This document shows, piece by piece, positions 4,595 through 33,364 of a stretch of 64,000 nucleotides of DNA (within the stretch, counting starts at the first letter, position 1; every line of letters starts with the position of its first letter). The stretch comes from a phage: the NCBI GenBank assembly GCA_022901335.1, contig GCA_022901335.1_3641.1. One strand, 5' to 3'. Both the position numbers and the translations under genes were made by a program. The notes beneath the pieces were generated by a model, which had not been told where the DNA came from, ran no database searches, and saw only the letters and a list, made by a program, of their open reading frames with translations.

Positions 4595-7500
4595 ATGGCT
4601 GATATTAAAGTTGTCAGAATCGAATCTCTTCCTGCCACTACCGCAGTGACAGAGGATGATTACCTGGTTGTTCAACAACCAGACCTGACCCGTCGTGTAA
4701 AAATTGGCGATGTTGTCCATGTGGATGGGACTGTTTCTCATGTAATCTCCTTTAAGGAAGGTGGTAAGTTAAACGGCCCAATGGATTTTGCCTACTTCGA
4801 AGAGGAAGACCTCTACCTGCGTTGGAAAGGCGAATTTCCCCACACTGTTCCTGCACTATCTTCACCGTACTCCGATGGTGGGATTACTGACGCTGCATGG
4901 ATGGTATATACAGATCCGTCCTTAAGGGAGGAGCTGGAATCTACCATTGGAGCATCTATGATCATGACAGCCGAAGGGCAGTCTGTCCAGGATGTAATGG
5001 ATGTTACTGTTCAAACAGCTAACGATGCTAAAGCACTTGCACAGCGTGTGGATTTTGGTACAGTGCACACTGTAGGTGATGTTATTCACCTTGATAACTT
5101 TGTGGGTCCTGCAGTTATTGAAGAGGGAAGAACCACCAACTACCCTTCTGTAGCAGCTGGTGAAAAATTTCTGAACGGTGTGGTATCTCGTCGTGATACT
5201 ACAACTGTTGATGGTATTTTCCGTGGCGCTACCTCCGGATCCATGTATACCATTGCAGTAACCAATGGTGTAGCAACAACAAAAAGAATAGCACTTCGTG
5301 ATGAATTTAAACGCCTAGAGGCAAACAGCCCAACAAGAACAGTTATCCGTGCTGGAGATGATTTAAACACGGCAGGGTACTTGCAGCTTGATGCAACAGG
5401 CCGCTGGGGTATGTGGAACCAACAAACAGCCTCGTGGCAACCTCTTGCTATAGAGCAAGGCGGTACAGGAGCCAGGGATGCCGCAGGTGCACGTATTAAC
5501 TTAGGGGCTTTCTATAAGCAACGTGCAGCCCTTGAGCCAAATTTCAATATCAATAACTTGACTGGTAATCAGGATGGTGTATACTACCAGCCGATGACTG
5601 CTTATGCAACCGAGGCAAATGGTTACCCTGCAGGTTCTGGTGCTGGTCACTTGATTGTTTGGCAGAACAATGCTAACGGCGGTACAGGTTGTCGTCAGGA
5701 ATACTATCCGTTCTCTAACGTAGATGTTTGGTATTTGAGAACCTATCAGGCCAACACAAACCAGTGGACTGCATGGCAGCCTATGGTCAGACCTCGTAAC
5801 GATGATACCTTTAGATCGCACATCGGTCTCGGGTCCAGAAATGCCCCTACTTTTGGGCACCTTTATCTGTCTCAAAGCACTGCTGAGGTTAAGTCGCCAT
5901 CAGGTATTCTCCATGGGGATAAATACGGCGCTGACGGTGTCCTTGAGCATGGATATCGTATCTACTCTGAAGTAAGAAATGATAATAAAGCTTGGTTAAC
6001 AATCCACCTGCATAAAGGTGCAAAAGGATCTGAAACTCACAGATATTTAGGTTTCTGCGAAGACGGAGTATTAGACTGCCCTAAATACATGCAGGTTGGG
6101 GATCTCACTGGTCAGCTGACAAACTGGGGACTTGGAGAGTGGATCCGTAGTTCAGGGGCAGAAAGAGGCTTCTGGGGGTCCAAGAAAGCCGCCAAGATGG
6201 TTGTCTGGGATGGTGGGATGGACGAATCCGGTAACGGCACTCTGGAATGGGGTGTTTATAACAACCGGAAGGCCAAGTGGGAACCTTTACCTCAAGCCGC
6301 AGGTGGCACTGGAGCTACAACTTTAGCAGATGCTCAGAATCTGTTCAAAGTTCCTATAGCAGCAGGTGTAAAAGACTTCTTAACACTGCCAAGAACCGCA
6401 GGGATGGAAGATGGGAAATACTACCCAATTATCGTTAGAACAGATCCGTACTATGCCCCAGCAACTGGCACTGATATTACCATAGTTACCAGATCGTCAT
6501 CCGGCGGTGACCCTATGAACTGTGCTACCTTACAGTGTCACTATAGAACTGGTGGGTGGACAGACAGAGGAGACTCTTTCTACGGGGTAGTAAATTTCTA
6601 CCAGAATGAAAAAGCACTTCTTGGGATGGTTGCTCCAACAAGGGGTAAACAAGAGTATGTTGCTTTCTATGTAGAGGCTCGTGCTTTCCCTGTCAGCATA
6701 TACGCAAGTAGAAATGTTGTCGAAGTGTTTACCAGAGAGCAAGATTACCAGGTCGGGGCTGTAACAGACAATCAGGATGGGGTTAAGTTCGTTGCACCTC
6801 TTCAATCAGCAGACTTGAATCTAGCTGTTCTTGGAGATAACAACACCAATACCAGACCTATTGTTGACTTCAAAGGTACTTCAGGGTTCTACACTGGCGG
6901 CGGCACACAGTGGCACTATATAGGCACTGCTGAACGCTATGCTGTGATGAGCAAAATGAATATGCCAAAAGTCGAGCTATGGGCAGACGGTATTGACTAT
7001 TTGTGCTACGGCAGTCCTAGAAAGGCGTTATTCTCTAATGCAGGATTCCAGTGTGCATCCGATGGGACAGAGGATCTTACTAACGGTACGTTTACCTCTA
7101 AATGCGGTAATGGTGCTGGTCTCAAAGGTCAGGCAGAGTTTAGATCTACTCCGGAAGCGGGTCAAGTTATTGTTCGCGATGTTGTAGGCACAGCTCATAG
7201 ATTCTACAACTTCAACAAAGATGGCACTTTCTCAGCTCCTGGTGGTTTTGTATGCCACACAGGTGCAGACTGGAACAACCAGTTCGGGAATAACAACCCT
7301 TCTAAAATAATGGCTGGTAACGTCAACGGACCTGAAGGTTCCATGGTTGTAGCAGGGTTGTCGGTTGGTTTTTCTGGAAACTACGCTTTCCAGATGGCAG
7401 GTCGTTTAGACCAGCTGTATACTCGTTCCATAGAGCAGGGAAACCACAGAGCGTGGAACAAAGTTATTCAGCACCGTGGTCAAGGGTTGGGAACTAATGA

Positions 7501-8494: not shown

Positions 8495-9085
8495 ATGTTT
8501 TTATGGGAAAGGCCTAGATACCTTCCAGATATTAGATTGGAGCTGCTGGCAGATATTGTTACGTTTAAAAGTCCGTTTACAGGTAAAACGCAAAAAGTAA
8601 CCTATGCCACACCTAACTGGAAAGGCACTTTGACGGTTTCCAATATCAGCGAGTCACAGTTGCTAGAGCTTAAGAGCTTTGTTGATCAGGTGTATAAAGA
8701 TGGAAACATCTTTCTTATTAAAACTTACGGTCACTCAGTTACAGCTAATGAGCCAATCGCCCTTGGGCCTACTGGTAACGACGATTTTTTGAAGACGGTT
8801 GGGTGGGAGCCAAACAGAGACATAGCCAGAGCTGGGGATAAAATATCTGTCAATGATGAATTGAAAGTGGTAACAGCTCCAGTGCGTAGCGATGGTGTTG
8901 GGTCTGCTGTTATAAGCATATCTCCAAGACTTAGAAAACCTATTGCCGCAGGGGATACTATGAAGATAATAACTCAATCCCCAAAGGGTAGGTTTCATAT
9001 CAGAGATATTTATAAAATTAAGCAAAAAGTCGATGCTATGCAAAAAGGTGATAATATAGTTATCACCTTCTTTGAGGATTTCTAA
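8495..9085 (+). CDS. minor tail protein (lambda gpL-like position)
   Basis: RBS GGAGG; first gene of a four-gene set ending in a J-like fibre; no motif recognised. Confidence 0.45.
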   Translation: MFLWERPRYLPDIRLELLADIVTFKSPFTGKTQKVTYATPNWKGTLTVSNISESQLLELKSFVDQVYKDGNIFLIKTYGHSVTANEPIALGPTGNDDFLKTVGWEPNRDIARAGDKISVNDELKVVTAPVRSDGVGSAVISISPRLRKPIAAGDTMKIITQSPKGRFHIRDIYKIKQKVDAMQKGDNIVITFFEDF

Positions 9086-15269: not shown

Positions 15270-15956
15270 ATGGCAGAGATTAAGTCGGATGTTAACCACA
15301 TCCACGCTCTGCCAGATTTTGTTCAGGGAGGTCTTGACTACCTACCTGGAGATTTTCTGGCTGAGAAGGTTAATTTAGTCACATTCTTAACCGTATACCT
15401 TAAAAGGTTGGAGGATGTTGATAAGATGCTGGTAGGTTTGGCTGAAGGAAGATTGCTTAACAATGCCAGCGGAAGATACCTTGACGAAGTTGGTAATCAA
15501 CTTGGTATTCTTAGGAATGGACTTTCAGATGCTGATTTTCGTGCCACACTAATTATTCAGCAGGCCGCAGCATCAAGGGGCGGGACTCGCGAAGATGTCA
15601 TCTCCACCTTGCGACAATTGTTCGGAAGAGACAATTTCGATACGTGGAAAGGAGACAACTTCAGGTTTGACATAAATATTAGAAAAACTTGCTTTGACAT
15701 ATTGCAGTCTATCGATCAGATCTTAGATATGCTACCATTACCTTGTCATTTGCGTCTTACAGAATCGCAAGGGCAAGCTTTTGGTTTTGAAGGGGACTCT
15801 ACAGCTCTTGGCTTCGGATCAGTGTGGGAAGAAAGCCAATTCGGAGTTGGTGGGCTGGCTACTTTGCTATATGTTCCTGACGTAAGACCTGATTGGGACA
15901 CCACAACCATTTATTGTGAAAGTATTACAGTAAACGCAACTAGACAGGAGGGTTAA
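15270..15956 (+). CDS. baseplate protein (P2 gpI / DUF2612-like)
   Basis: follows J-like gene; LDEVGNQLGILRNGLSDADFR motif resembles gpI-type baseplate proteins. Confidence 0.4.
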   Translation: MAEIKSDVNHIHALPDFVQGGLDYLPGDFLAEKVNLVTFLTVYLKRLEDVDKMLVGLAEGRLLNNASGRYLDEVGNQLGILRNGLSDADFRATLIIQQAAASRGGTREDVISTLRQLFGRDNFDTWKGDNFRFDINIRKTCFDILQSIDQILDMLPLPCHLRLTESQGQAFGFEGDSTALGFGSVWEESQFGVGGLATLLYVPDVRPDWDTTTIYCESITVNATRQEG

Positions 15957-18028
15957 TGGCAACAGCTGTTTTTAAACCTTACCGTGATTACTCTACAATG
16001 GCTGCACAGTTTCATTACCGAACAGTTCAGGATACTGCCGTTCCTGGTAGGGATTATAATCATGTTGAGGGCGATGTAACTATCCCAATTGGGGCAACCA
16101 GTATTGAGATCCCCGTGGAAATTGTTGACAAATTACCCAACAGGTTGCCAAGAAGCTTCTTTATGGAGTTTTCATCAAAATCTCAAGGGGTGATGATTGG
16201 AACACAAAGGGCGAAATGTACAATAGTTTCAGATGAGAATCTTGACAGGATATCTTGGGATACTGTTGAGGAGAGAATGTTTCACCCAAGGTATTGGGTT
16301 ACAACTACTCAGCAGACTGAAAGTACCTGTATTGTTGCAGATAACAACTGTTGTATTAACCGTTTAGTGTCAAGAACATATGGAGGTATGGCTGGGTGCA
16401 TTTGGGAAACAGTTGACAAGTATGACCATTTCGGTATTGGGTTTGATGATCACTATGAGATGAGAAACACCAAGCTTTGGTTCAGAATGTCAATAACCAA
16501 TGCCAGCAACTTCTCCACCCCTGAAAAGATGATTATGACTGTAGACCTTGTTGATGGCACAATCATCTATGTTCCTTTAGCTCAATATGCTGTCAGCATC
16601 TCAGAGGATAAGAATGTTGCAGAGATTCATATTGATTTCGAGGACTGCGTCGGGATGGATCAGAACAACAACATGATGGGTGTTGATCCTCGACAGGTGA
16701 GAAGGATTTTAATACCGCTTATGCCTAAAGACTGGGTAAGTAATAGCACAGACCCGAGAACGGAAAATGTAGAGTGTGAGTTGCGCCTAGATCTGCTCCA
16801 GCCAGACACAGGCTGGAAAATGATGCAACTTAACAATATTCAGGTTAAAGAGCACGACGTTGGGATCTGCACCGCATATGACGATATGTGGAACGTATCT
16901 CCTTTAAGGGTGTTGAACAATATCAAGCGTCTGGGCTATACCGGAACCATAAACCATTATGTTGGTATGAGTCATTATTATGACTACACATGGTCAGGAA
17001 CCCAATGGTCTATAAACAGAACAGGGGCGCTAAACGCTGCAGCTTATAAATGGCATGATGATTTTATGTACAATGCCAAACGACATAACTTCGACGTTAT
17101 GCAATCTGTAAGTTTTGAGCTTTTCAGCGATGCCTGCCCGTTGGAATGGACCCAAAGAGACTGGAACGATAACTACGCTAAAACAGGGTATACACCTTGT
17201 AGCTACCTCCTGTCTCCAACCATTGAAGAGGGTATGAATTTCCTTACTGCAGTATTTAAGAATTTTGCATCAGCCGCTATGAGAAACAACCTGCCAGTGA
17301 TTATGCAGGTTGGTGAACCGTGGTGGTGGTACAATACCGATACTCGTAGACCTTGTATTTATGATTACCCTACAAAGCAGGCGTTTTATGATGAGACAGG
17401 TGAGTATGCATTAGATATTGGGACTATTGACGATCCTAAAACTGGCGGTGTTTACGACAAGTATGTAGCATTTTGTCGTGGTAAGCTTGGCGCTCGTATT
17501 GCGGCTATTTCAAAGGCAATAAAGGCACACGCTGCATCAGCTCAGATGACAGCTTTGCTGTTTTTCCCAACCATCATGGAAACCGAGCTTACGCAAAAGC
17601 TGAACCTTGCTGACCAATATAAAAAGGAAGCAGGTGCTCTTGATTTCTTCTGCACCGAGTGCTACGATTGGGTGATGCAGGGGGGTATTGAAAAGGCAAA
17701 AGAGTCTGTAAACATACCTATCGTTAAGTTAGGTTGGCAACCGTCTGAAATACAATACCTTGCAGGGTTCGTTCCTAGTAAAGAGCTTGCTCCGGTATAT
17801 GGATACGACCCAACTAGGAATTACCAAGAATTTTTATGGAGATGTATTTGCGGAAACATGGCAACTATAGAGTATAGATACCCTGAGGTAAAACAGTATG
17901 TGTGGGCATACCCGCAAGTAATGTCTGACAGCATCACTGTTACCGCTAGAGATTCTACCGTGCTTCATATGGGGCAGGTTGCTCTGAAAGGGTATGTAGA
18001 AGATGTTGTCCCGCCAGACTTCTCATAA
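15956..18028 (+). CDS. structural protein with Calx-beta-like N-terminal domain, possible glycanase
   Basis: AVPGRDYNHVEGDVTIPIGATSIEIPVEIVD resembles a Calx-beta motif; rest unassigned. Confidence 0.4.
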   Translation: MATAVFKPYRDYSTMAAQFHYRTVQDTAVPGRDYNHVEGDVTIPIGATSIEIPVEIVDKLPNRLPRSFFMEFSSKSQGVMIGTQRAKCTIVSDENLDRISWDTVEERMFHPRYWVTTTQQTESTCIVADNNCCINRLVSRTYGGMAGCIWETVDKYDHFGIGFDDHYEMRNTKLWFRMSITNASNFSTPEKMIMTVDLVDGTIIYVPLAQYAVSISEDKNVAEIHIDFEDCVGMDQNNNMMGVDPRQVRRILIPLMPKDWVSNSTDPRTENVECELRLDLLQPDTGWKMMQLNNIQVKEHDVGICTAYDDMWNVSPLRVLNNIKRLGYTGTINHYVGMSHYYDYTWSGTQWSINRTGALNAAAYKWHDDFMYNAKRHNFDVMQSVSFELFSDACPLEWTQRDWNDNYAKTGYTPCSYLLSPTIEEGMNFLTAVFKNFASAAMRNNLPVIMQVGEPWWWYNTDTRRPCIYDYPTKQAFYDETGEYALDIGTIDDPKTGGVYDKYVAFCRGKLGARIAAISKAIKAHAASAQMTALLFFPTIMETELTQKLNLADQYKKEAGALDFFCTECYDWVMQGGIEKAKESVNIPIVKLGWQPSEIQYLAGFVPSKELAPVYGYDPTRNYQEFLWRCICGNMATIEYRYPEVKQYVWAYPQVMSDSITVTARDSTVLHMGQVALKGYVEDVVPPDFS

Positions 18029-18040
18029 TCAGGAGATAAA

Positions 18041-19081
18041 ATGTCAAAACCTAGTTTTCCATTAGAGATTTGGGCAGAGGAGGATCAGGTTCTGCCTAAC
18101 ACCCACAGACAGAACAGGCTACGCCCGATTGATGATTTGTGGAGAAAAGGTTGGGATCTTGGTCAAAAGCCCTCATGTGAAGAACTTAACTATATTTTCA
18201 ATATGCTTGGAACTTGGGCAAAATATATTGCTGACGAGCAGATCCCCGCTCAAGAAGGCCGTTATCTGGTACGTGATAATAACCTGAGTGATCTTTTGAA
18301 CATTCCTGTTGCCCGTAGAAACCTTGGGATTATTACTAAGGAAGAGGCAGATGCCAGGTATGTAAAAGTTACAGGTGATACAATGACAGGCCCATTGGGT
18401 TTGCAACGTATCAACTTTAAAGCTGCCGAGACAGATAAGGCTTGGATAGAGACAACTATTGGCCCAGATAAGACAACTCTCGACTTCGGGTTAAGTGATA
18501 ATATTGGGTCGTTTGATGATGGTAGTACATCTACAGTAGATGCGTTTCGTTGGAGATTCCAGCCAACTCAGCCGGATATTAATCCAGAGTTCACTTTGAT
18601 GTACCTTAACGCGATCACGGCTAACCGTGCGCTGTTGAAAGTGGTCGGCAATGTTGAAGTTGTCGATAACATGAGGTGCAATAACCTTACTATCAGCAAT
18701 ACAGCAACATTCACCAACTGCAATGTAGCTAGTCAGTTGACGGCTGGGTCAGTATATGTCAATGGCGGTGCAAGTTGTGACAGTATGGTTGTAAGAAGTC
18801 AGCACTGTGTTGTCGGTAACAGAAATGTGGTGCGATCTGTGAATGGAGTGACGGCTAACGGTAACGGTGATGTAACAATCACTATCCCGCAGACAGGTGT
18901 GCAAGACATCAGAATCGGTGCAAGACTTGTTGACGGCGTTTCTGAATCTCCAATTCGCAACGGCTACGTTGTCACAGGCTGGCATTTCGGTGACAAAAAA
19001 GAGATGCGTGGTTCAACCTACTGGGCAGGACCTTTACAAAAACTTGTAAACGGTCAATGGATCACTGTTAATTATGCATAG
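18041..19081 (+). CDS. tail fibre protein (paralog A)
   Basis: RBS AGGAG; paralogous to 20096..21139 (shared N-terminus and C-terminal QKLVNGQWIT motif). Confidence 0.55.
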   Translation: MSKPSFPLEIWAEEDQVLPNTHRQNRLRPIDDLWRKGWDLGQKPSCEELNYIFNMLGTWAKYIADEQIPAQEGRYLVRDNNLSDLLNIPVARRNLGIITKEEADARYVKVTGDTMTGPLGLQRINFKAAETDKAWIETTIGPDKTTLDFGLSDNIGSFDDGSTSTVDAFRWRFQPTQPDINPEFTLMYLNAITANRALLKVVGNVEVVDNMRCNNLTISNTATFTNCNVASQLTAGSVYVNGGASCDSMVVRSQHCVVGNRNVVRSVNGVTANGNGDVTITIPQTGVQDIRIGARLVDGVSESPIRNGYVVTGWHFGDKKEMRGSTYWAGPLQKLVNGQWITVNYA

Positions 19082-19095: not shown

Positions 19096-19680
19096 ATGAA
19101 AATACTTCAAGAGTTTAAACTTTACCAACCGGGATCTGGCGAATACCACGCCAACAAGGGTACCAAGGAGCTGACCCCTCAAGAGGTTGAGGATTACACC
19201 GCATACACTGGGTATTTTTTACGTAATGATGATGGCGATTGGTATGTGCAGTCACGAACATTGCGACAAGAAAATCCGGGTTGTATCTTCCTACTTGTTG
19301 ACGAGAAGGGAATTCTTAAGACATCTACAGAAGAACCTGATGCCTTATGGCCTGCTCCAGGTCTTCGTGTGGTTATCGCCAAAAAAGAAGAGGTACCAGA
19401 AAACATTATGCTTCACCACGACGCTTTGCGTTTAGTTGGTGATGAATTTGTCACAGATAATGAATTCTTTGTTCAACAGGCAGAGGGTGTCATCGAGACA
19501 GAACTTGCTTGGGCTACTGCTAGAATTGGTGCCTATCAAGACATGATTGACCTTGAATATGATCTTACTGATGACCAGAAACGTAACATCAGAGATTTGA
19601 AAATGTACAGGGTAAAACTTCTTGAAATAGATACATCTAAAGCCCCTGACATTTTCTTCCCGGAGCGACCTACCCTCTAA
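19096..19680 (+). CDS. tail fibre assembly chaperone (Tfa / Caudo_TAP family)
   Basis: C-terminal YRVKLLEIDTSKAPDIFFPERP matches the tail assembly chaperone signature. Confidence 0.7.
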   Translation: MKILQEFKLYQPGSGEYHANKGTKELTPQEVEDYTAYTGYFLRNDDGDWYVQSRTLRQENPGCIFLLVDEKGILKTSTEEPDALWPAPGLRVVIAKKEEVPENIMLHHDALRLVGDEFVTDNEFFVQQAEGVIETELAWATARIGAYQDMIDLEYDLTDDQKRNIRDLKMYRVKLLEIDTSKAPDIFFPERPTL

Positions 19681-20065: not shown

Positions 20066-20095
20066 AGTCCTAAGGAATTTTCTCAGGAGAACGTG

Positions 20096-21139
20096 ATGAC
20101 TAAACCAGTTATCCCTCTTGATATTTGGGCCAATCAGGATGTTGTGCTTGAAAATACGGGAGAGTTGAATAAGTCTCAACCAAAAAAAGAAGAGAGATTG
20201 AAAGGTTGGGATATGACACAAAGAATGGCATGTGAAGTTGTTAACTTTGAACTTCACATGCTTTCTGCGTGGTTAAAGCATTTAACAGAAGATGTTGTCC
20301 CAGGATGGGATAATAGATTCTTAAGGGTCACTAATAATCTGGCAGACGTTCCAGACAAAGCTGCTGCACGTCAAGTTCTCAATGTATACTCGCCTGAAGA
20401 AATGGACGATCTATATGTTGACAAGTCTGGAGACATAATGACTCAGACTCAAACTTTAGGTCTTCAAAGAATCGAGTTTGCATCTGCGTCAACAGACAAT
20501 GCGGCAATATATACCACCATAACTCCAGACAAGACGACAATGGATTTCTGGATTATGGACAACATCGGTGGTGCTGACGGCACAGATCTTGATGATCCTT
20601 CTCACCAAATAGACGGGTTCCGTTGGAGATTTCAACCTTCTGGTGGGCAGCCTGTGTTTTCGGCTATGAAGCTCAATGCTATAACTGCCAACCGTGCAAG
20701 ACTGGCTATCCAAGGAAATCTTGAATGCAATGATGCAAAAAGCTCCTCTGCAAATGCTAATGCGGTAACGATACCTAGAGCCACTGTTAATGGACAACAA
20801 TCCTGCGGAAGCGCTCAAATAGGTGGAAGAGTTGATTGTAACGATGAAACAGTCAGGGGTCAATATGCAACAGTTGGTGGAAGAAACGTGGTCCGCAGGG
20901 TAAATGGTAGTAGCGCAGACAGTAGTGGTAACCTTACTATTCCTATGCCTAGTAGGGGTGTTGAAGATGTAAGGATAGCAAACCGTTTCAGAACCACCTA
21001 CAGAGAATCAAGAGTGTACCCTGGGCATGTAATGTGCTCCGGCAATTACGCCTATAAACACCCGTATCAGGGCGACTATTGGACTGGAGCTATTCAAAAA
21101 TTTGTAAACGGTCAATGGATCACCATATCTTATGCTTAA
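20096..21139 (+). CDS. tail fibre protein (paralog B)
   Basis: ATG 20096 after RBS AGGAGA; paralog of 18041..19081. Confidence 0.55.
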   Translation: MTKPVIPLDIWANQDVVLENTGELNKSQPKKEERLKGWDMTQRMACEVVNFELHMLSAWLKHLTEDVVPGWDNRFLRVTNNLADVPDKAAARQVLNVYSPEEMDDLYVDKSGDIMTQTQTLGLQRIEFASASTDNAAIYTTITPDKTTMDFWIMDNIGGADGTDLDDPSHQIDGFRWRFQPSGGQPVFSAMKLNAITANRARLAIQGNLECNDAKSSSANANAVTIPRATVNGQQSCGSAQIGGRVDCNDETVRGQYATVGGRNVVRRVNGSSADSSGNLTIPMPSRGVEDVRIANRFRTTYRESRVYPGHVMCSGNYAYKHPYQGDYWTGAIQKFVNGQWITISYA

Positions 21140-21424: not shown

Positions 21425-23170
21425 ATGGCGCAAGACATGACAAGCTTCGAGCAGGCGGTAGATCAAGTAATTGTTGATTCTGAACGTTTGCACTTGATTG
21501 TCAACGGTAACGCTGTGGATGAAGTTGTCGTAGAGGATGGGACCACCATCCCTACGGTACGAAAAGCCATGCTTGACACCCTTTATTTTAAAACGCCACC
21601 AATCCCTTGGGCGTATGGTGCATCCACAACAGTTTTTAACCAGTTGTATGAGTTTAAAGGGGATACAGGCCCTCAGTGGTGGTACGCCCCAGCAGCATCA
21701 AAATCTAACCCGGTTAGGATGCCAGCAGATCCTTCACAATCTCCGAACTGGAGATTATATACCGATTCTGCAGTAATGGCAAAATACTACGCAAAACTTA
21801 ACAGCCCAAGATTCGAAGGTGACCCGCGAGTACCTACACCTCCAATGGATGATAAGTCCGAGTCTATAGCAAACACAGAGTTTGTTGTTGACTATGTGGA
21901 TAGCATATTTAAAGCCATGGAGGGGATGAAAGTTACTGTAGGGTCTTTGGTGGTAAAAGGTCTTACAGAACTTGCTAACACTATAGTTGGTGGCACCCTT
22001 ACCTTACACGGGCCTGTTAATGGAGCGGATTCTACTGCACGCTTCAGGAACCTAATCCTTACTGCAAATACTTCTACACTAACTTTTGCGTGGAGCGATC
22101 CTAAGCATGCAGACTGGAGAAGCACAGAGCTGCAACCTCATGAAGTGGTCACCCACAGAGTTATAGCTGACACTATAACTTCTGGGAAACCAGTGGCTAA
22201 TAACAACGATGTGCATTTTGATGGTCTAGGTAATAACTTTTTTGACTACGTGTACATTCGTGGTAACTCCATGAAGGCAGCAACCGAACCGACATTGCAG
22301 GTTGATGGGACCACCAGGGTTAAGAACCTTGAGGTGACAGGCACCGTTACAGGGATAACCTACTCTGTAGATGGCACCATGATCTACCCTAGCTATATTG
22401 AAAGCACGGGAGATGCACTGATCAATGGAGATTTAGAGGTTGGCGGATCTATAGTCATTCGTGGCACAGCATCTGTCCAGAACATATCTTTAAATACTCT
22501 GAGGGTGAATGAGCGTGCCACTTTTGAAGGGGAAGGGCTTACCGCCAACAAAGGTACGATTACCGAGCTGACAACCACTACTCTAACTGCAACAACTGCA
22601 AACTCTGAAAACTGCAACGTTACCCGCAACTTGCAGGTAAATGGAGATGTTAGTTTAAACGCAGCAGGTACGGGAACCACTTATCTTCACAACCTTGAAA
22701 TATCCGGCACGGTGACTGGGTGGCTGCCAGACTTCTCTAATGTCAACTTTGTCTGCAATGGCATTAACTCCAGTGGTAAGATAACCACCTCTCAAGAAAT
22801 TGAGGCTGGTAAAACTATTACTGCCCCTACTTTCCACGCAGGGAAGGTAGATTTTGATTTAGAGGAGGTTGACGCATCCAGTGGGACATGGACACCTAAC
22901 GGGCAGGCCAGCATGTATGTTGTCCACGCGAAAGGGGATTTTACAATAGGACAGTGGCCTGGGACATCAGCGGAAGATAAACCTTATCCATTCACTGCAG
23001 TTATCTATGTCATTCAGGATGCTGTAGGTCACAACGTGACTTTGCACGATAAGTATGCTATCCTGTCGGCAACACCTGTTATTAACAACAAGGCTAACAG
23101 TGTTACCTTGCTGCAATTAACGTATTGTGGTGTTGGTGATATTGTAGACGTAGTAATTGCACAACGTTAA
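21425..23170 (+). CDS. side tail fibre protein (P2 gpH / lambda Stf-like)
   Basis: RBS AGGAG; SPRFEGDPRVPTPPMDDKSESIANTEFV matches the conserved fibre N-terminal motif; repetitive beta-rich C-terminus. Confidence 0.6.
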   Translation: MAQDMTSFEQAVDQVIVDSERLHLIVNGNAVDEVVVEDGTTIPTVRKAMLDTLYFKTPPIPWAYGASTTVFNQLYEFKGDTGPQWWYAPAASKSNPVRMPADPSQSPNWRLYTDSAVMAKYYAKLNSPRFEGDPRVPTPPMDDKSESIANTEFVVDYVDSIFKAMEGMKVTVGSLVVKGLTELANTIVGGTLTLHGPVNGADSTARFRNLILTANTSTLTFAWSDPKHADWRSTELQPHEVVTHRVIADTITSGKPVANNNDVHFDGLGNNFFDYVYIRGNSMKAATEPTLQVDGTTRVKNLEVTGTVTGITYSVDGTMIYPSYIESTGDALINGDLEVGGSIVIRGTASVQNISLNTLRVNERATFEGEGLTANKGTITELTTTTLTATTANSENCNVTRNLQVNGDVSLNAAGTGTTYLHNLEISGTVTGWLPDFSNVNFVCNGINSSGKITTSQEIEAGKTITAPTFHAGKVDFDLEEVDASSGTWTPNGQASMYVVHAKGDFTIGQWPGTSAEDKPYPFTAVIYVIQDAVGHNVTLHDKYAILSATPVINNKANSVTLLQLTYCGVGDIVDVVIAQR

Positions 23171-23179
23171 TATATCTAA

Positions 23180-23204
23180 CCGCTCCTGACGGGGCGGTTT
23201 TCTT
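23180..23204 (+). terminator. rho-independent terminator (CCGCTCC-TGAC-GGGGCGG + T-run)
   Basis: 7-bp stem with one G-U pair followed by TTTTCTT. Confidence 0.45.
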
Positions 23205-23218
23205 ATCTGGAGAACACA

Positions 23219-26200
23219 ATGCTTCCAATCCCTTTGCTAAAACTTGGTCGTCATTTCCTCGATAAGAGGGGTGGAATTAAGGAACTTGCTGTTCTGTCAT
23301 ACCCAATAGACAACAGTGATGGTACAAGCAACACAGTATCCTATGTAAATAGCTTAGCTATACTTTTTGATGATGGTCAGCTTAATATTACTGGCTATAA
23401 TAGGTTCGGAGAGTGTCGGACTGGAGATCTTGATACAATAAACTATCCTAATGAGGCAGCTTGGAACGTAGACCATGTTTGGAGAGCTGACCGTGCATTT
23501 GTAATCCGCACATTCGATAATAAATTTTTCTATATTGGTTGCACAGCTGGTCTTATCGGATCGGAGGCAGCAGGTGGAAACGATGTTTGTGTCAGAGAGT
23601 GGACACCTTTGCCGGAACAGATCGTAACAGGGTTGCATTTGGACACCCATCCTGAGAGACTTGTTGAAGTAATGGGTGGCGTAAACAATACAGTGTGGGT
23701 AATTGCTGCACCAGAGGCTGATGGTATGCTTCACCTGTACGGCTCTGGCAATAATACTTACGGCTCTCTTCATGTTGACAAAAGTCAACACGCTACTCCA
23801 GTTAAGATCGGTGAAACATCTGAAAGTCCAGAGACAGGTCCTTGGAAAAATCCAAGAATTAATTGTGAAGTTCATGACAACTCGGTTATTTTTGGTGGTC
23901 CTAACGGATTCTGGATTGCAGGTTATGATTTCTTAAGAAATAACAGCAAAAACACACTAGTTTATCCAGCCGAGCATGTGACTCTTGACCAGTTTAAAGG
24001 CATCCCGGTGGGCGAGACATGGAAAGGGTTCATGTGTGGGCCTAATGGTGCAATTATAGCCACAGAAAGGATGCACAAACCTGATGACCAACAGCTTGTT
24101 AATGTGTTTTATGGTCAGGATGTTTGGGGTGACGACACGTGGAGAAGCCTTAACATCACCTATACCCATGAAGTAATTATGGCTCGCGGGTACGGGACTA
24201 GTGGAATTTTCTTCAATAATGGTACAAAACAGTACCGTGGTTTCTCCAGAAACCTGTGTAACGATATTGGTGCTCAATCTGCTAATAATAATCCTAGGGC
24301 CAATTTTATTCATTACAGAGCGCTGGCAACAGCTAAGTTTGTTGAACAGACAGAGCCAGTAAGCTGGACAGAAAGCGTTTATTTTCAAGGGATCCACAGG
24401 GAAGGTTTCTTAGGCACACTCTGTGTGGTAAATGGAAAGCTTTGGTGGTCAGGAATACCACGTGGTAGTTTTTCAGGATCTAATAACCTCTTTGGTGGCA
24501 GACTTAACAGCCAAGGGTTCACAGAGATTCCGGAGAATTGGTATAAAAATGTCCCGGTAGACAGTTGGGGTGTTGAGGATATTTTCGACGTTAACGGTGT
24601 TAGCAGCGTTAGCAATATTTACATTGGTGACACGGTCAAGATGAAGTTGAAGCCTCAGCCAGAGGGGGCTACGTTCATTATTGACAAGATTGAACTGGTA
24701 AATGCTGCAGGTACGGTTGTTACAGATGCAAATTACCAATTCTCCACCAACTGGAACCACGGCGGGGCCAACGAAGTTGTTGTTACCCAGTATAACAGAA
24801 ATGTTAACAGACGTGGCCTGTACTCTGTAAAAATAACCTATCATGACAAGCATGGCACAGGCAGAACCCATACGACAAGGACTTTGAACTGGAACACCAT
24901 AGTTCCTGCGTATCCGTCCAACGGCAAGTGGCATACTGTCGGTAGAAACAAACAGTTCCATGTCAACGATACTGTATACTTCGGGCTTAACGCAGCTCAA
25001 CCTGCTGTAGAAGGCGATACATCGTATATAGTACGACTCCATAGAATGGATGCCGGGTCTGTAACCTACGATGTGACTCAGGAGATCTACGATCAGAGAC
25101 GTACCACGTATGACAATGTTGTGAAAACACAAGCCTTGTGGGAGTTCAACCCTAACGGCAGAGGCGGTAAAATGTTGCAGGTCAACGAGCAAAACGGGAC
25201 ATCGTTGACTGTCCATGAACATCCAGATCCTTGGCCTGATCCTGGAAAACCTAACTCTGGTGCTCGTACACTGAAAATTGTTAGCCATGATGCAGGATAT
25301 TTCGGAATACGCTGGGAAGCCACAGTAAGATATGCCGACGGGACAACAAACAACATAGGGATCACCCTTGGTGGCACTAGTGAGGATAACTCCCTGAAAA
25401 TTGCCTACACCCCTAGGGGCATCTCTATTGACAACATAGATGTTGTTCGCAACGGTTACGGCGATGTGAATGTCAAAGTTACTCTTGGCGAACATCTTGG
25501 TGGGGAAAGGATCATCATGTATGCCTTTGATCATGATCCGCGCACCAATGGGACTTATGCAAATCAGGCATGGAGTTATCTGATAAATGCACCTGAGCCG
25601 AATACTAAAGAGTTCTACTACGGTATGAAGCGAGATGTGTGCAAGAAAACAGGAACACATGACTGGATTGCTATCTGCGTTAAAGATGAGCGCACAGCTT
25701 GGGATGAGCCTGTTAACAGATGGTTCATAGGTATTCCTACCAGAAGTGATAAGTATGTCGCAGAATATATTGTATGCATGGGCGGTACCAACCTAAACAT
25801 GTGTTGGAACGAAGATGTAAACAAATACTCTGATTATGACTATATGAGGGATTACTCTTGTAATTTGTGGTTTAACCAAACTACAGGTTACCCTCCGCGT
25901 CAGGCAAGGGTAAATCCTGCAATCTTTACAGATACGCAGGTTTTCTTGACAAAACAGGCCAACGAGGTCCAGACCTTCAAGAACAAATACGACCCTAATA
26001 AGTGGTTCTATAACTGCTATGGGGCATTTTTCTGGGGACCTGGAGAATTACCTGGTGGTGGCTCTTGTTTTGAGGCTGCAACTTACGCCAGTGACAGATT
26101 TATGGGCCAGGTCAAGAAATACAAGATAATTCCAGGGCCTGAAACTTTAGGCAACGCTGTCGACCCCTATATCATCATGAGTGATCTAAGATCGAACATG

Positions 26201-28855
26201 GATGGAACATCCATATCTATGCAAGTTCCGGTAACAAACGGATACAAGCGTGTTGTGATGATCATTAAGTGCGATCTGATAGGTAAGCAAGTTCTTGCAG
26301 AGAACGGAACTTCCACCCACCTATTTGAGACTGCTCTGCACTATCAGTTTTCTGATTCACCTTTTGCAGGGGATAAGAGAATATCTGACACAGACGCTGT
26401 GCGATGCAAGAAATTTATGCTAGGTGGTGGGTGGTGGTGGTATGAATTTGACTTAACAGACAAATTCACCGACACGTCTAAAGTAGTGACGGGGCTTCGT
26501 CTAGACCTTGGCGAAAACATGCACAAAAGTGTTTGTGATGGCACCTACGGTGACCCAACAATCTACTTAAAGTATGTCTCTTTTGAGCACCCAGAGGATG
26601 TTGTTTATGGTCCAAAACTGAGACTGTTTGGCAATTGGATTGCTAAAGACAGGGTAGGTATGGGCAAGAAGGTAAGAGGCTTCTTAATGGATGCCGGTAC
26701 AGAGGACATGCTAGTCAATGCAGTGTGGCCTGAATTACCTGGGACTCAGTGGAACAACTCAGCCAAATCTATAAACTGGTTCAATATCCACAGGGCTATG
26801 TGGACAACCAACTGTTACCTGTGGAAAGAGCTGAATGACGGCGCTTTCGGGTTCACAGGCGGCAGAAGAATGGCAATCATTTGCTGGACAACGTTGCAAA
26901 GATGTTATGACCATGACTACGAGATTGGAGGTAGGGCATGGAAAAATATTAGGGATAGAATCATAACCAACTTTGCAGATCCTAACGGTGGTGGAGCGTA
27001 TGGCTTCGACTGCAGCAGGCTCATCCATTTGAACGGATCCTCTGCCTACAAGAAAGAAGGTTACTCTGGGTCTATGATAGAATGGGGCCTGGTGAAAGAT
27101 GCTCGCGTGCTGATGGGTCAACAACTTGCTGCTGCAATAGGTCCTAATGCAGTGCAATCTGTTAAACCTGCGTGGTTTGATATCCCATTGTGGTCATCCG
27201 GTACACCAGGAACTGCTGCAATCAACCCTACCACGGGGGATCTGGAAATCTCTTGGGAGGACTTGAAGCAGGTTGGAGGCTGGGATAAAACAGGGTATCA
27301 GGTCCAGTGGTGGAGGGCTGATGGATCTTTAGCCGCTGATGAGTTTGTTAAGGACAATTTCTACACCATGTCCTCTGCAAAAGCACAGCAATTATTTGGT
27401 CAGGCCACTCCGTCAACGATCACCATGTCTATGTGCTGTAAAGACAACAGGACTGGAGCTTTGGGGCCAAGGGTTGCTAAGGTTTTCTCAGGTATTAAAT
27501 GGAATCTCCCTGTTCAAAGTGTTTCATGGAAGCAAATAGGTGATAACAAGCTGCTGGTTACCCCTGCCTGTCAGTTCAACGCAACTCTTAACGTTGATCC
27601 TGCTGTTGCGGCAAACTCAGCTAAAGCTTCTGACTTCTCTGTGTCTAACACTGCTATGGCAGATGTGAGGAAGATTGACACGCTGAACGCCAGAATTACC
27701 TGTAAAAACACTTATGGCACATTCCAGATCATCAACAACTTCACAGATGCTGATTCTAAGGTAGTGAGGACAGCAAGCCAGACTTTGAGTTTAGGAACTC
27801 TGGCCTATGCGGCCCTGATCACTGAACAGTCGGCAACACTCCAAGGAGGTGGTGTAGGCAAGTCCATTACAACACCTGTGTGGAAGCCAAATGAGTGGGT
27901 TGTGTTCGATTTGACTGTGGACTTCTCCAGTGATAATAACTGGACATGGGTAAGGAATTGTTTGTCACAGTTGATGGGCGGTCCAAGCTCCATTAGCGAT
28001 AGTCACGACTCTACTGACCCGAGCGTGTTCCAGGTGGGTAAAACTCACCCAGAGACTGGAGAAACGTTGCCTGACAGGAAGTATGCTTTGGTTTGCATCT
28101 CTTACGGGAAGGCAGATGTCACCTTCTCAGGGACACACACTTATAACGGAACCTACAACTTCTCAAGGAAGTATAGTCTCAAAGCAGGGAACATTGTAGA
28201 CGAGGTTGGTGTGCTGTATAATCCAGGTAACGGCATAGGGATTGTGGGTGGTAAACTGCAGATGCAGGAACCTTCTATTACCCCTTCCAACGTATCCGGT
28301 ATTAGAAAGACTTGGGAAAGTAATAATACCAACATTGCAACAGTGGATGCTGCCACAGGGCTGGTAACATTTAAAGCTACTGGGAATGTCACCATAAAGT
28401 TTGTAGTTACTGATGATGCAGGGCGCAAAACGTCTTCAACATCTTTTACTGTCAAACAGATGGCACCACAGTGGAGAATGTGGATAGGTACAGCAACAAA
28501 CGGGGCATACCCTAATCCGGCAGGTACTTCTGGTATGAAGACTTTCTCTACAAGCAAACCGATGGAGTACGGCAGCGGTCCTAAGGTAGGGCAGATGGTG
28601 TACTTTGGTGCGTATATTCCTGAAATTATAGGGCTTCCGAGAAGTCAGCTTCAGTTGCTGTTTGGGGCTGGTGTTGACGATCTTGCCACTTTCGGGTATA
28701 GCGACAACATCGAGGCTGCAAGGAGTTCAGGATGGGTAGGGTTCAGAATGGAGTCTGGAAAGGAAGGCAGGGTTCTAGGGACAGCCTCTATAGGTGTTAT
28801 GTTCCCTGGTGACCAGCAGTATCGTCTAGAAGCCTACGCAACCTTTTCTCGTTAG
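23219..28855 (+). CDS. giant virion-associated protein with C-terminal Ig-like (Big_2-type) domain
   Basis: 1878-aa ORF with RBS GGAGAA; Big_2-like segment (...IATVDAATGLVTFKATGNVTIKFVVTDDAGRK...). Confidence 0.55.
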   Translation: MLPIPLLKLGRHFLDKRGGIKELAVLSYPIDNSDGTSNTVSYVNSLAILFDDGQLNITGYNRFGECRTGDLDTINYPNEAAWNVDHVWRADRAFVIRTFDNKFFYIGCTAGLIGSEAAGGNDVCVREWTPLPEQIVTGLHLDTHPERLVEVMGGVNNTVWVIAAPEADGMLHLYGSGNNTYGSLHVDKSQHATPVKIGETSESPETGPWKNPRINCEVHDNSVIFGGPNGFWIAGYDFLRNNSKNTLVYPAEHVTLDQFKGIPVGETWKGFMCGPNGAIIATERMHKPDDQQLVNVFYGQDVWGDDTWRSLNITYTHEVIMARGYGTSGIFFNNGTKQYRGFSRNLCNDIGAQSANNNPRANFIHYRALATAKFVEQTEPVSWTESVYFQGIHREGFLGTLCVVNGKLWWSGIPRGSFSGSNNLFGGRLNSQGFTEIPENWYKNVPVDSWGVEDIFDVNGVSSVSNIYIGDTVKMKLKPQPEGATFIIDKIELVNAAGTVVTDANYQFSTNWNHGGANEVVVTQYNRNVNRRGLYSVKITYHDKHGTGRTHTTRTLNWNTIVPAYPSNGKWHTVGRNKQFHVNDTVYFGLNAAQPAVEGDTSYIVRLHRMDAGSVTYDVTQEIYDQRRTTYDNVVKTQALWEFNPNGRGGKMLQVNEQNGTSLTVHEHPDPWPDPGKPNSGARTLKIVSHDAGYFGIRWEATVRYADGTTNNIGITLGGTSEDNSLKIAYTPRGISIDNIDVVRNGYGDVNVKVTLGEHLGGERIIMYAFDHDPRTNGTYANQAWSYLINAPEPNTKEFYYGMKRDVCKKTGTHDWIAICVKDERTAWDEPVNRWFIGIPTRSDKYVAEYIVCMGGTNLNMCWNEDVNKYSDYDYMRDYSCNLWFNQTTGYPPRQARVNPAIFTDTQVFLTKQANEVQTFKNKYDPNKWFYNCYGAFFWGPGELPGGGSCFEAATYASDRFMGQVKKYKIIPGPETLGNAVDPYIIMSDLRSNMDGTSISMQVPVTNGYKRVVMIIKCDLIGKQVLAENGTSTHLFETALHYQFSDSPFAGDKRISDTDAVRCKKFMLGGGWWWYEFDLTDKFTDTSKVVTGLRLDLGENMHKSVCDGTYGDPTIYLKYVSFEHPEDVVYGPKLRLFGNWIAKDRVGMGKKVRGFLMDAGTEDMLVNAVWPELPGTQWNNSAKSINWFNIHRAMWTTNCYLWKELNDGAFGFTGGRRMAIICWTTLQRCYDHDYEIGGRAWKNIRDRIITNFADPNGGGAYGFDCSRLIHLNGSSAYKKEGYSGSMIEWGLVKDARVLMGQQLAAAIGPNAVQSVKPAWFDIPLWSSGTPGTAAINPTTGDLEISWEDLKQVGGWDKTGYQVQWWRADGSLAADEFVKDNFYTMSSAKAQQLFGQATPSTITMSMCCKDNRTGALGPRVAKVFSGIKWNLPVQSVSWKQIGDNKLLVTPACQFNATLNVDPAVAANSAKASDFSVSNTAMADVRKIDTLNARITCKNTYGTFQIINNFTDADSKVVRTASQTLSLGTLAYAALITEQSATLQGGGVGKSITTPVWKPNEWVVFDLTVDFSSDNNWTWVRNCLSQLMGGPSSISDSHDSTDPSVFQVGKTHPETGETLPDRKYALVCISYGKADVTFSGTHTYNGTYNFSRKYSLKAGNIVDEVGVLYNPGNGIGIVGGKLQMQEPSITPSNVSGIRKTWESNNTNIATVDAATGLVTFKATGNVTIKFVVTDDAGRKTSSTSFTVKQMAPQWRMWIGTATNGAYPNPAGTSGMKTFSTSKPMEYGSGPKVGQMVYFGAYIPEIIGLPRSQLQLLFGAGVDDLATFGYSDNIEAARSSGWVGFRMESGKEGRVLGTASIGVMFPGDQQYRLEAYATFSR

Positions 28856-28863: not shown

Positions 28864-28898
28864 AAATAAAAAGGGGCCAAACGGCCCCTTTCTTTTTA
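28864..28898. terminator. bidirectional rho-independent terminator between convergent blocks
   Basis: 8-bp stem AAGGGGCC/GGCCCCTT, loop AAAC, A-run on one side and T-run on the other. Confidence 0.65.
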
Positions 28899-32574: not shown

Positions 32575-32838
32575 TCAGAAACCCTCTAAAAAGCTCTTGT
32601 AGAAAATAATTTCAGTGTCCACACCTGTCACGATCTTATCGTTTCGGATCTCATCGGTAAGATAGGTGTCAAAACGCAGAACCTGTGTGGTGTTGTCACA
32701 CATCCACTCAGCTGTGACCATTGCGAAAATCTTAGCATCTTCATTATCTGGTGTGAATGTTACCACCTCACCGCACTTAAACTTTTCGATAGGCTGAGTG
32801 TTAGCTTTCGGTTCTGCGATAGTGATTTTTGTGGTCAT
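32575..32838 (-). CDS. small protein, tandem paralog family member 3
   Basis: 87 aa; shares CGxVV...VTGVDTEIIF core with neighbours. Confidence 0.5.
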   Translation of the reverse strand: MTTKITIAEPKANTQPIEKFKCGEVVTFTPDNEDAKIFAMVTAEWMCDNTTQVLRFDTYLTDEIRNDKIVTGVDTEIIFYKSFLEGF

Positions 32839-33101
32839 TATTCTCCTCCTTCTTTCGAATAGCTTGTCTCTCCAAGGATGGTAATTTTGGTATCAAGCTC
32901 TGTAACTTTCATGTTTGGCGGCAGATCGTACAACTCATTATTTTCTAAATCGAATCCCCACACACAATGTTCTCCTGTTTTGACAATCATAACTATGTTT
33001 TGAATGCCGTCTCCGTCGCAACTTACCACGGTCCCACACGGAAAACTGTCTGCACGCTTTTTGTTCTTCACCTTAGAATTGAATACAATGCTAGTAGCCA
33101 T
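32838..33101 (-). CDS. small protein, tandem paralog family member 2
   Basis: 87 aa; MATS..F.SK.K.KK..S..CGTVV...VWGFDL...VTELDTKITILGE; ATGA overlap with neighbours. Confidence 0.5.
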   Translation of the reverse strand: MATSIVFNSKVKNKKRADSFPCGTVVSCDGDGIQNIVMIVKTGEHCVWGFDLENNELYDLPPNMKVTELDTKITILGETSYSKEGGE

Positions 33102-33364
33102 TATTGTTCCTCCACCATAACTTCGCCAAGAATTTCTATGCAGGCATCCATTTCTGTAACAACCAAACTGTGAGGTAGTTCTACAAACACCTTTCTGAAC
33201 AGGTCAAATACCCCAACATATATGTTTGCAGGATGTGATTTTACAACAAGTGCTGTATTCACATCCCCAAGTTCATCAACAAACATCACCACAGTGCCTA
33301 GAGCTACTGAGGACAGATACTTCTTAGTTTTACGGTTTGATGCAAATTTTAACTCTGTTGCCAT
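33101..33364 (-). CDS. small protein, tandem paralog family member 1
   Basis: 87 aa; MATELKFASNRKTKK...GTVV...VGVFDL...VTEMDACIEILGE. Confidence 0.5.
   Translation of the reverse strand: MATELKFASNRKTKKYLSSVALGTVVMFVDELGDVNTALVVKSHPANIYVGVFDLFRKVFVELPHSLVVTEMDACIEILGEVMVEEQ

Follow-up and report, generated by a model that had tools for sequence, protein, structure and literature searches.

The stretch of DNA analysed here, 64,000 nucleotides of phage sequence (contig GCA_022901335.1_3641.1 of assembly GCA_022901335.1; hereafter the window), belongs to an rV5-like myophage of E. coli (genus Vequintavirus), and its largest open reading frame (ORF) is the gene of the 1878-amino-acid (AA) protein gp27. 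We read gp27, with somewhat more confidence than doubt, as a low-copy glycan adhesin built like a string of beads and held at its N-terminal end, possibly by the head of the gp28 fibre. An adhesin is favoured because the protein combines non-catalytic binding folds with a conserved N-terminus, a variable tip that occurs as two alleles, and a tail-fibre locus. An earlier note, made from the letters of the window alone, had offered a giant adhesin as one of three guesses, and this guess is the best supported of them by the binding-type folds, the variable tip and the tail-fibre locus. The same note had not recognised the known rV5 gp27 and had missed the N-terminal propeller.

The gene is already known and annotated; the position of its product in the particle and its function, as given below, are proposals. 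The profile of phrog_15684 matches gp27 end to end (residues 1-1878 of 1878, 4487 bits); the protein is 91-98% identical at the AA level in 110 phage records that cover at least 80% of it, and more than 100 phage records match the DNA at 92-97% identity. The rV5 orthologue, rv5_gp027, is annotated as 'Ig-like domain-containing protein', and in the BASEL genomes the orthologue is labelled 'lateral tail fiber protein with intimin domain'. Added here are the N-terminal propeller, the CBM-like and N4-gp65-like central content, the hairpin-guarded slot in which the gene lies, and the hypothesis of docking on gp28.

For a selection test we used a codon alignment of the window gene with ten orthologues, 11 sequences in total. 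The reading frame is open in 11/11, and windowed pN/pS ranges from 0.02 to 0.20 over AA 1-1740 and from 0.18 to 0.43 in the last 140 AA. Purifying selection acts along the whole length of gp27, and the ORF is far beyond chance. Variation within the genus is concentrated in four hot spots, AA 241-300, 961-1020, 1081-1140 and 1741-1878.

Domain chain of gp27

Structure was predicted for two halves of the protein, AA 1-850 and 841-1878, with alignments of 15-16 homologues. Confident pieces of the models are the sandwiches at AA 445-560, 735-850 and 970-1125, an FN3-like piece at ~1330-1410 and an Ig piece at ~1590-1760; the C-terminal domain was modelled with moderate confidence. The gene and the segments of its product are as follows (pLDDT, predicted local distance difference test score).

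23219..28855, + strand: gp27 gene (whole); ATG start, 1878 AA, phrog_15684 orthologue of rV5 gp27
23219..24538, + strand: predicted RCC1-like beta-propeller, AA 1-440; starts MLPIPL, best conserved part between genera, proposed anchor end
24551..24898, + strand: Ig-like beta-sandwich, AA 445-560; all-beta, pLDDT 64-85, no Pfam match
24899..25420, + strand: mixed beta/helix region with no domain assigned, AA 561-734; pLDDT mostly <50
25421..25768, + strand: second confident beta-sandwich, AA 735-850; pLDDT 65-79
25769..27208, + strand: central Trp-/Cys-rich module, AA 851-1330; many invariant residues, low pLDDT except in the jelly-roll
26126..26593, + strand: CBM-like jelly-roll beta-sandwich, AA 970-1125; holds two of the within-genus hot spots
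26870..27514, + strand: N4-gp65-linked segment, AA 1218-1432; remote homology to phi92 gp153 and to the KKE7M protein of the same gene position, FN3-like at ~1330-1420
27515..28261, + strand: Ig-like beta-sandwich spacers, AA 1433-1681; strands, pLDDT mixed
28262..28417, + strand: Big_2 Ig-like domain, AA 1682-1733; source of the 'intimin domain' label
28439..28852, + strand: variable C-terminal tip, AA 1741-1878; two alleles in the genus, proposed ligand-binding end

We conclude from profile comparison that AA 1-440 probably form an RCC1-like beta-propeller, because hhalign matches gp27 AA 1-449 to AA 1-415 of the RCC1-hitting phAPEC8-type proteins (Prob 99.9, E 1e-33, confident at both ends) and because the two share the motif LYGSGxNTxGSLG, on which the RCC1 repeat match of the phAPEC8-type homologues falls. 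In Pfam, AA 45-199 of gp27 itself match PF25390 WD40_RLD at E 3.8e-4 (20.3 bits, cut-off 150) and the protein matches RCC1_2 at E 0.055. Five proteins of the phAPEC8 gp086 type match WD40_RLD at E 1e-9 to 1e-12, still below the 150-bit cut-off, and the homologues P0021-P0026 together with 4MG_038 exceed the cut-off of the RCC1 repeat, PF00415 (22-37 bits vs. 21.7). Both phAPEC8 gp086 and 4MG_038 match phrog_4219, 'regulator of chromosome condensation' (E 4e-34 and 1e-42, respectively). Seven strand-turn-GxNxxG-like repeats were seen in the gp27 N-terminus by eye only, and in the AlphaFold model of AA 1-440 pLDDT is mostly <50. The propeller is not annotated in the records examined and is newly added by the present analysis. 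As a label on phage virion proteins, 'regulator of chromosome condensation' denotes the propeller fold, with no DNA-related function.

Toward the other end of the chain, the Big_2-like segment that the earlier note had seen near the C-terminus is confirmed by Pfam: PF02368 at AA 1682-1733 (E 3.6e-8, 33.7 bits vs. a cut-off of 22.8) is the only family above cut-off in gp27, and the domain was modelled at pLDDT 85-93. For AA 561-734 there was no Pfam match, and the only PHROG match was to the protein's own family. Foldseek searches against the PDB and viral models returned Ig-like arrays (Nup210, cadherins, the Sap S-layer protein and a surface protein of phage SU10), and also the phi92-like and PVP-SE1 proteins that occupy the same gene position as gp27. 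When the PDB was searched with a family-alignment profile, nothing beyond Ig domains was obtained, the best but weak match being to the capsid decoration protein 9kmh (E 0.21). Pfam (four segments, E<=10), sequence and profile searches of the PDB, and Foldseek all gave no catalytic fold of the glycosidase, lyase, hydrolase or beta-helix kind. The multi-domain depolymerase proposed earlier is not borne out by these searches, and we rejected a depolymerase or tailspike identity, as no right-handed parallel beta-helix or glycosidase/lyase domain was found. An identity with intimin was also rejected, since a single Ig domain is all that is shared.

The tip beyond the Big_2 domain has the lowest identity (79-87%), the highest pN/pS (0.18-0.43) and two endings, ATFSR and TNFPS. 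With AA 1690-1878 as the query, which includes most of Big_2, only Vequintavirus-type records were retrieved, 72 of them at 95-99% identity and 38 at ~71%. A word-indexed protein search gave 15 full-length relatives, two close ones and 13 in a distant clade of ~1711-1976-AA proteins from assembled sequencing runs; the latter are 45-58% identical to gp27 over the first 76% and have no Big_2 domain recorded. Two segment queries of the word-indexed protein database added 3 and 1 further matches. Only 8 proteins were found when AA 1-1200 were searched exhaustively with HMMER against 1.84 billion cluster representatives: one full-length family representative, a pair of small fragments, and five proteins (588-891 AA) whose similarity to gp27 is confined to about its first 200 AA. 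In the same search AA ~200-1200 had no relatives outside the immediate family. Along the chain, identity to the distant clade is 70-80% in the propeller, 30-70% in the middle and 15-40% in the last third, and AA 1433-1681 are replaced there by unrelated sequence (15-40% identity). A conserved N-terminus with a variable C-terminus is the usual pattern of a protein anchored by its N-terminus whose exposed distal end binds a ligand.

The first 450 AA of the window protein (23219-24568) are 99.6% identical to FFH2, yet the two full-length proteins share only 92.5% identity; over the whole length HeinrichReichert comes closest, with 98.5%. Window gp27 combines an FFH2/typing-phage-5-type N-terminus (99.6%) with the ATFSR-type C-terminal allele. 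This arrangement points to a gene that is mosaic within the genus, through putative recombination between alleles inside the gene.

Two kinds of database record similar to gp27 carry unexpected host names. Between 15 and 20 unannotated 'Campylobacter phage' records of 135-146 kb (e.g. MG065655, MG065654, MG065635), with Campylobacter jejuni given as host, are 93-97% identical to the gp27 gene of E. coli Vequintaviruses, and their host labels look doubtful. An NCBI entry 'hypothetical protein, partial [Eggerthella lenta]' of 318 AA, on a 955-bp contig, is 94% identical to part of the gp27 N-terminus and is probably a phage contamination of the assembly.

For the central module there was no Pfam match, and PHROG matches beyond its own family are below threshold (phrog_32204, E 0.0024; phrog_19096, E 0.25). 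The former covers gp27 AA 1101-1444, and hhalign gives E 0.002. The 295-AA 'tail protein' gp153 of phi92, encoded two genes after gp151, aligns with gp27 AA 1218-1419 (E 5.7e-7), with identities at positions that do not vary within the gp27 family; the 939-AA protein of KKE7M, annotated as 'non-contractile tail sheath', aligns with AA 1219-1432 (E 2e-6). phi92 gp153 in turn matches the solved N4 gp65 (9lc0_I) at E 1e-24. These remote-homology signals between gp27 and N4 gp65 agree with each other, though each is weak. N4 gp65 is a monomeric ten-domain chain that acts as a receptor-binding protein (PMC13434306), and it appears to be the best known analogue of the gp27 architecture.

Could the central module (AA ~851-1330) make gp27 an enzyme-bearing fibre, with an active SASA/SGNH esterase or deacetylase, an activity that has been suggested for N4-gp65-like proteins, which strips acetyl groups from a surface polysaccharide so that the phage can move toward the cell surface? 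We consider this improbable. The segment AA 1218-1432 is kin to phi92 gp153 and the KKE7M protein, which match N4 gp65 and also Pfam SASA (PF03629, sialate-acetylesterase), yet the latter matches (E 0.008-0.02) lie below the curated cut-off, and gp27 itself has no SASA or SGNH match in Pfam at E<=10. A record of a gp153-type orthologue in ALITA is named 'tail carbohydrate esterase', glycan-modifying domains occur on other fibres of these phages (PMC8594841), and the module holds many invariant Glu, Asp, His and Trp residues. The motif blocks of gp27 and KKE7M/gp153 were aligned by eye; they set gp27 'EYIVCMGGTNLNM' at KKE7M 'EVIVFAGQDNVNA' and gp27 'GFLMDAGTEDM' at gp153 'IIWGQGENDA'. In this alignment the candidate block I of gp27 is 855-GGTNLNM, with GGTN in gp27 and GQDN in KKE7M (AGQDNVN) in place of the GQSN of true SASA enzymes. 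The nucleophile position is thus held by Thr857, invariant across the gp27 family, and by Asp in KKE7M, where SASA esterases have Ser. The candidate block III reads AGTED (QGExD in SASA), and no DxxH of block V could be assigned in gp27. Because neither gp27 nor KKE7M has the nucleophile serine, we think that the module is more likely an esterase-derived binding domain than an active enzyme, and it may be an esterase-derived fold interrupted by the jelly-roll.

The slot, its hairpin and the gp28 fibre head

The gp27 gene is the last + strand gene of the baseplate/tail-fibre block, and genes 5′ of it have PHROG matches to baseplate wedge, tail fibres, two short tail fibres and a chaperone. Its flanking elements are the following (RBS, ribosome-binding site).

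22853..23167, + strand: C-terminal head of the gp28-type fibre, AA 477-581; fibre gene 21425-23170, proposed docking partner of gp27
23178..23212, + strand: intergenic hairpin and RBS; GC-rich hairpin 23178-23199, T-rich run, GGAG RBS 23209-23212
28870..28891, both strands: bidirectional terminator-like hairpin that closes the structural operon; 3′ of the gp27 stop codon, rated strong

Beyond the 28870-28891 hairpin the coding strand and the GC skew both switch, and at the equivalent place in rV5 Rho-independent terminators are annotated on both strands. The same conserved position, as last gene of the tail-fibre operon with gp28 before it and a bidirectional terminator after it, was found in Vequintavirus records. 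The earlier note was right to place the ORF at the end of the structural operon. It was also right on size, as the next-largest ORFs of the window have 1266, 1248 and 1199 AA, and on the absence of tape-measure, portal and polymerase motifs: with no such matches and with the gene in the fibre block, these three identities were rejected. The calculated mass of gp27 is 208 kDa and its isoelectric point 6.3.

This position behaves as a slot. A slot gene directly follows a gp28-type fibre gene in five genera, Vequintavirus, Phapecoctavirus, Seunavirus, Justusliebigvirus and Certrevirus, and the proteins of filled slots all begin M-[LFY]-P-[IF]-[PA]. The contents are listed below.

VLCpiM5a (Mydovirus): no cargo; terminator directly after the fibre gene
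phi92 (Justusliebigvirus): gp152 (202 AA) and gp153 (295 AA)
CR3 (Certrevirus): gp034, 422 AA, propeller only
4MG (Seunavirus): 4MG_038, 567 AA
phAPEC8 (Phapecoctavirus): gp086, 891 AA
KKE7M (Justusliebigvirus): 939 AA, intact gp152 + gp153 form
This window (Vequintavirus): gp27, 1878 AA

phi92 gp152 retains the start peptide of the slot even though the propeller is deleted. A comparison of phi92 (L013, 7321-8983) with KKE7M (L018, 1456-4275) showed that gp152 (202 AA) and gp153 (295 AA) match opposite ends of the 939-AA KKE7M gene, with 97% and 91% identity, respectively. The record of phi92 gp153 notes 'no RBS identified; weak prodigal statistics', and in ALITA the gene is split elsewhere, into 719 + 172 AA. 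The phi92 gp152/gp153 gene looks interrupted, either by mutation or by sequencing error.

Between the fibre gene and the gp27 gene, the hairpin at 23178-23199 has a 9-bp stem with 6 GC pairs (-16.7 kcal/mol, z -4.1) and is terminator-like. It is near-invariant in 11 Vequintavirus genomes, with one stem-flanking substitution in FV3. Hairpins of unrelated sequence stand at the same place in phAPEC8, 4MG, phi92 and CR3; a GC-rich tetraloop hairpin followed by a T-run thus lies between the gp28-type and the slot gene in five genera, its structure kept and its sequence not. The loops are TGAC in the window, GAAA in L003 (~8960-9000) and TTCG in L004 (~5960-6000), L013 (~7285-7320) and L015 (~5283-5316). 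A terminator is annotated just upstream of the slot gene in phAPEC8, and a terminator feature lies under the match to PVP-SE1 gp40. The slot hairpin is probably an attenuating, leaky terminator.

The C-terminal head of gp28 is 51% identical to the C-terminus of phAPEC8 gp087 and 48% identical to that of phi92 gp151. Among gp28, phAPEC8 gp087, 4MG_039 and phi92 gp151 the fibre ends (~105 AA) are 48-56% identical, and the body of gp28 does not align with the body of phAPEC8 gp087. The conserved fibre head, the slot start peptide and the hairpin between the two genes suggest that the head interacts with the N-terminus of the slot protein, which would be made in smaller amounts by read-through.

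We propose that gp27 is made in low amounts relative to gp28 because of the leaky terminator hairpin just before its start codon, and that its conserved N-terminus would attach it to the particle, perhaps at the C-terminal head of the gp28 fibre; the docking on gp28 we regard as doubtful. From there the protein would extend some tens of nanometres as a thin flexible thread, probably monomeric, whose jelly-roll and variable tip would bind surface glycans reversibly. In this way it would improve adsorption to certain hosts, and would not itself be the essential step of receptor binding. A wider form of the proposal, which we think rather unlikely, is that rV5-, PVP-SE1-, phAPEC8-, phi92- and CR3-like myophages share a plug-in slot, in which a monomeric, hairpin-attenuated cargo docks on a trimeric gp28-type head. 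The cargo would have grown from none (Mydovirus) via Ig-only or propeller-only forms to the 1878-AA thread, and this thread would account for both the 70-nm thin fibre and the TC8 density described below.

The gp28-type head is also found outside these genera. With 36-39% identity it forms the C-terminal end of a 'long tail fiber proximal subunit' of very large size, both in Asteriusvirus SP27 (L016, 1-5306) and in other jumbo coliphages of 347-386 kb. Eleven RCC1-like proteins were reported for the jumbo coliphage phAPEC6 (PMC7247149).

Virion evidence and alternative readings

In rV5, gp27 is listed in Table S5 (Additional file 5, PMC3606486) with 3 peptides, 9 spectra and 3.1% coverage, and the mass-spectrometry support for gp27 on the virion is weak. 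W70_106 (phrog_15692), which occupies the slot of gp27 in phage W70, gave 115 spectra in virions (PMC11370258). Micrographs of rV5 occasionally show five to six thin 70-nm fibres. Cryo-electron microscopy (cryo-EM) of two Vequintaviruses located 3 of 9 annotated fibres (PMC12143355), and gp27 was not among the baseplate fibres found. The same study describes a density without assignment on the C-terminal head of fibre TC8, in which its authors see an adaptor that would carry either a tip adhesin or a longer fibre (PMC12143355). The phi92 reconstruction makes no mention of gp152 or gp153. The essential receptors of these phages are assigned to other parts than gp27: NGR/ECA is ascribed to a different protein, the deacetylase-domain fibre, and the lipopolysaccharide core is the second receptor named. 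A comparison of gp27 with the deacetylase fibre of the window (15956-18028) for paralogy gave no significant match, and a literature search for host-range mutations mapping to gp27 returned nothing relevant.

The 19-protein virion list of rV5 (PMC3606486) admits proteins on two or three non-tryptic peptides, namely gp27, gp1, gp228 and gp37. Several rV5 'virion protein' calls that were carried into later comparisons rest on weak spectra. A paper on O177 labelled as 'proteomics' is in silico only.

A number of observations weigh against gp27 being a virion adhesin docked on gp28. Each rV5 gp27 peptide is either non-tryptic or only semi-tryptic, two rank poorly, and the text of the rV5 paper omits gp27 from the detected proteins that it names. 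The equivalence of TC8 (RBP65) with gp28 is only supposed. The gp28-type head occurs without a slot gene in Mydovirus and on jumbo-phage fibres with unrelated genes after them, from which it follows that this head is not reserved for docking. N4 gp65 is connected with gp27 through intermediates, and the step that involves gp27 is weak (pairwise E 6e-7, profile E 0.002), and glycan binding is something we infer for every member of the gp27 family. As for the propeller, the window protein's own RCC1-like match is below threshold (20 bits vs. 150), a self-repeat test was not significant, with one weak off-diagonal match (E 0.13), and sequence homology to CR3 gp034 (W70_106 family) was not significant either. 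Both AlphaFold models are of low confidence, with mean pLDDT of 47 and 54, so for the propeller, the domain boundaries and the helices of the central module the evidence comes mostly from sequence.

The BASEL annotation, 'lateral tail fiber protein with intimin domain', would make gp27 a lateral tail fibre of the canonical homotrimeric kind, fixed to the baseplate itself, a view to which we give little credence. The gene does lie in the tail-fibre operon, its product does have a conserved N-terminus and a variable C-terminus, and the slot proteins of phAPEC8 and KKE7M have a C-terminal domain that matches a solved 'tail fiber protein gp17' (9occ_C, E 1e-19). Yet searches of Pfam, of PHROGs beyond its own family, of the PDB and of folds gave no coiled coil, triple beta-helix, collagen-like repeat or peptidase S74, and all recognised domains (propeller, Ig, FN3, CBM) are normally monomeric folds. 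The closest structural analogue, N4 gp65, is not a homotrimer, no chaperone gene follows gp27, and the protein is missing among the baseplate fibres in cryo-EM of two Vequintaviruses.

Its absence from baseplate reconstructions would suit a position elsewhere on the particle, as a Hoc-type decoration or fibre of the head or neck, whose Ig-like domains give weak adherence to mucus or cell-surface glycans. AA 1591-1877 match phrog_215, 'structural protein with Ig domain' of the head and packaging category, though only in the generic Ig part, and the best profile match in the PDB, 9kmh, is a capsid decoration protein as noted above. In the phi92 record gp151 carries a remark on a 'potential capsid binding domain', and its structure was reported to resemble that of gp52, the head spike of phage Pa223 (PMC13450770). 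Against these stand the location of the gene at the end of the baseplate/tail-fibre block, away from the head genes, the annotation of gp27 relatives as tail proteins (phrog_11922, phrog_32204), and the fact that rV5 has a separate abundant decoration protein, gp61. We judge a decoration role to have a small probability. That gp27 is not a virion protein at all, being secreted, cell-associated or present only during infection, with a false-positive identification by mass spectrometry, is very improbable: the rV5 peptides are poor, with equally weak gp1 and gp228 matches in the same table, and gp27 was never seen in a reconstruction, but the gene has the orientation of the structural operon and is reached by read-through from there, holds only structural or adhesin-type domains, is under strong purifying selection over 5.6 kb, has an abundant same-slot counterpart in W70 virions and has relatives that share modules with N4 gp65, a solved virion protein.

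The adhesin reading has practical consequences. rV5-like phages are frequent candidates for use in phage therapy and biocontrol, with a host range ascribed to an adsorption apparatus with many fibres, of which gp27, as the largest protein of these phages, may be a part. The domain map, the slot and the pairing of gp28 head and gp27 N-terminus give a hypothesis on location that is cheaply testable, and the jelly-roll loops and the two-allele tip are parts that could be swapped in host-range engineering.

Other features of the window and relation to known systems

Inside the gp27 gene runs an antisense ORF.

24473..25660, - strand: antisense ORF, 395 AA; a shadow, not a gene

Its length is unstable, as it is shortened to 189 AA in rV5, where the DNA is 95% identical, and has 403 AA in JohannBauhin. 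It is not annotated in the orthologue records examined, and substitutions over this region track the sense (gp27) frame, all of which agrees with its earlier description as a shadow.

Elsewhere on the - strand (32575-33364), three 87-AA ORFs lie head to tail (32575-32838, 32838-33101 and 33101-33364). At this place the syntenic JohannBauhin has three small hypothetical proteins of 77, 87 and 88 AA, and the triplet looks like a tandem triplication of a small early gene. Upstream of gp27 on the + strand there are two paralogous short-tail-fibre genes, both phrog_4465 (18041-19081 and 20093-21139), separated by the gene of a fibre-assembly chaperone (19096-19680) and by a small ORF; according to the literature, such a phrog_4465-type pair is Mu gpS/gpU-like.

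Among known systems, rV5 gp27 (YP_002003529) and the BASEL proteins bas53_0040 and bas58_0041 are the same gene in the same position (1876-1878 AA, 91-98% identity), and the window protein differs from rV5 gp27 and the Vequintavirus orthologues by allelic changes only. Next come phAPEC8 gp086 (891 AA), PVP-SE1 gp40 and 4MG_038 (567 AA), classed in phrog_11922 as 'tail protein', whose propeller is homologous to that of gp27 (39% identity over AA 1-207, hhalign E 1e-33 over ~440 AA). Like gp27 they have Big_2 Ig domains after the propeller, the same gene position, a start of the form MxPIP and an upstream hairpin. Unlike gp27, they are two to three times shorter and are devoid of the segments at AA ~450-1680, and their C-terminal domain differs, resembling in phAPEC8 and KKE7M a solved tail-fibre tip (9occ_C). 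The Certrevirus/Septuagintavirus proteins CR3 gp034, CB7_37 and W70_106 (phrog_15692) resemble gp27 as propeller proteins that directly follow a gp28-type (phrog_4549) fibre gene behind a hairpin and start MYPF; in contrast to gp27 they consist of the propeller only (422 AA), and homology to its propeller is not significant.

To N4 gp65 ('non-contractile sheath', receptor-binding; PDB 9lc0, 9yf4; phrog_15324), as to the phi92-like slot protein (phrog_32204), gp27 has a weak and indirect sequence link. N4 gp65 wraps the tail of a podovirus as a heterodimer with gp64 and gates the tail plug, whereas gp27 is a myovirus protein with a propeller at its N-terminus, for which no gp64-like partner was found.

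Ig-like domains that decorate structural proteins of phages reportedly act as weak glycan binders. Compared with the C-terminal domain of lambda gpV, with T5 pb6 and with T4 Hoc, which are single accessory domains or a small capsid protein, gp27 is a separate multidomain chain of 208 kDa. With the E. coli adhesin intimin, one Ig domain aligns with the Big_2-type domain of gp27 (E 0.0075-0.016), and Pfam gave no LysM, beta-barrel or C-type-lectin-like Tir-binding domain in gp27. Because only this one Ig domain aligns, the 'intimin domain' of the gp27 annotation is to be read as a shared generic Ig fold.

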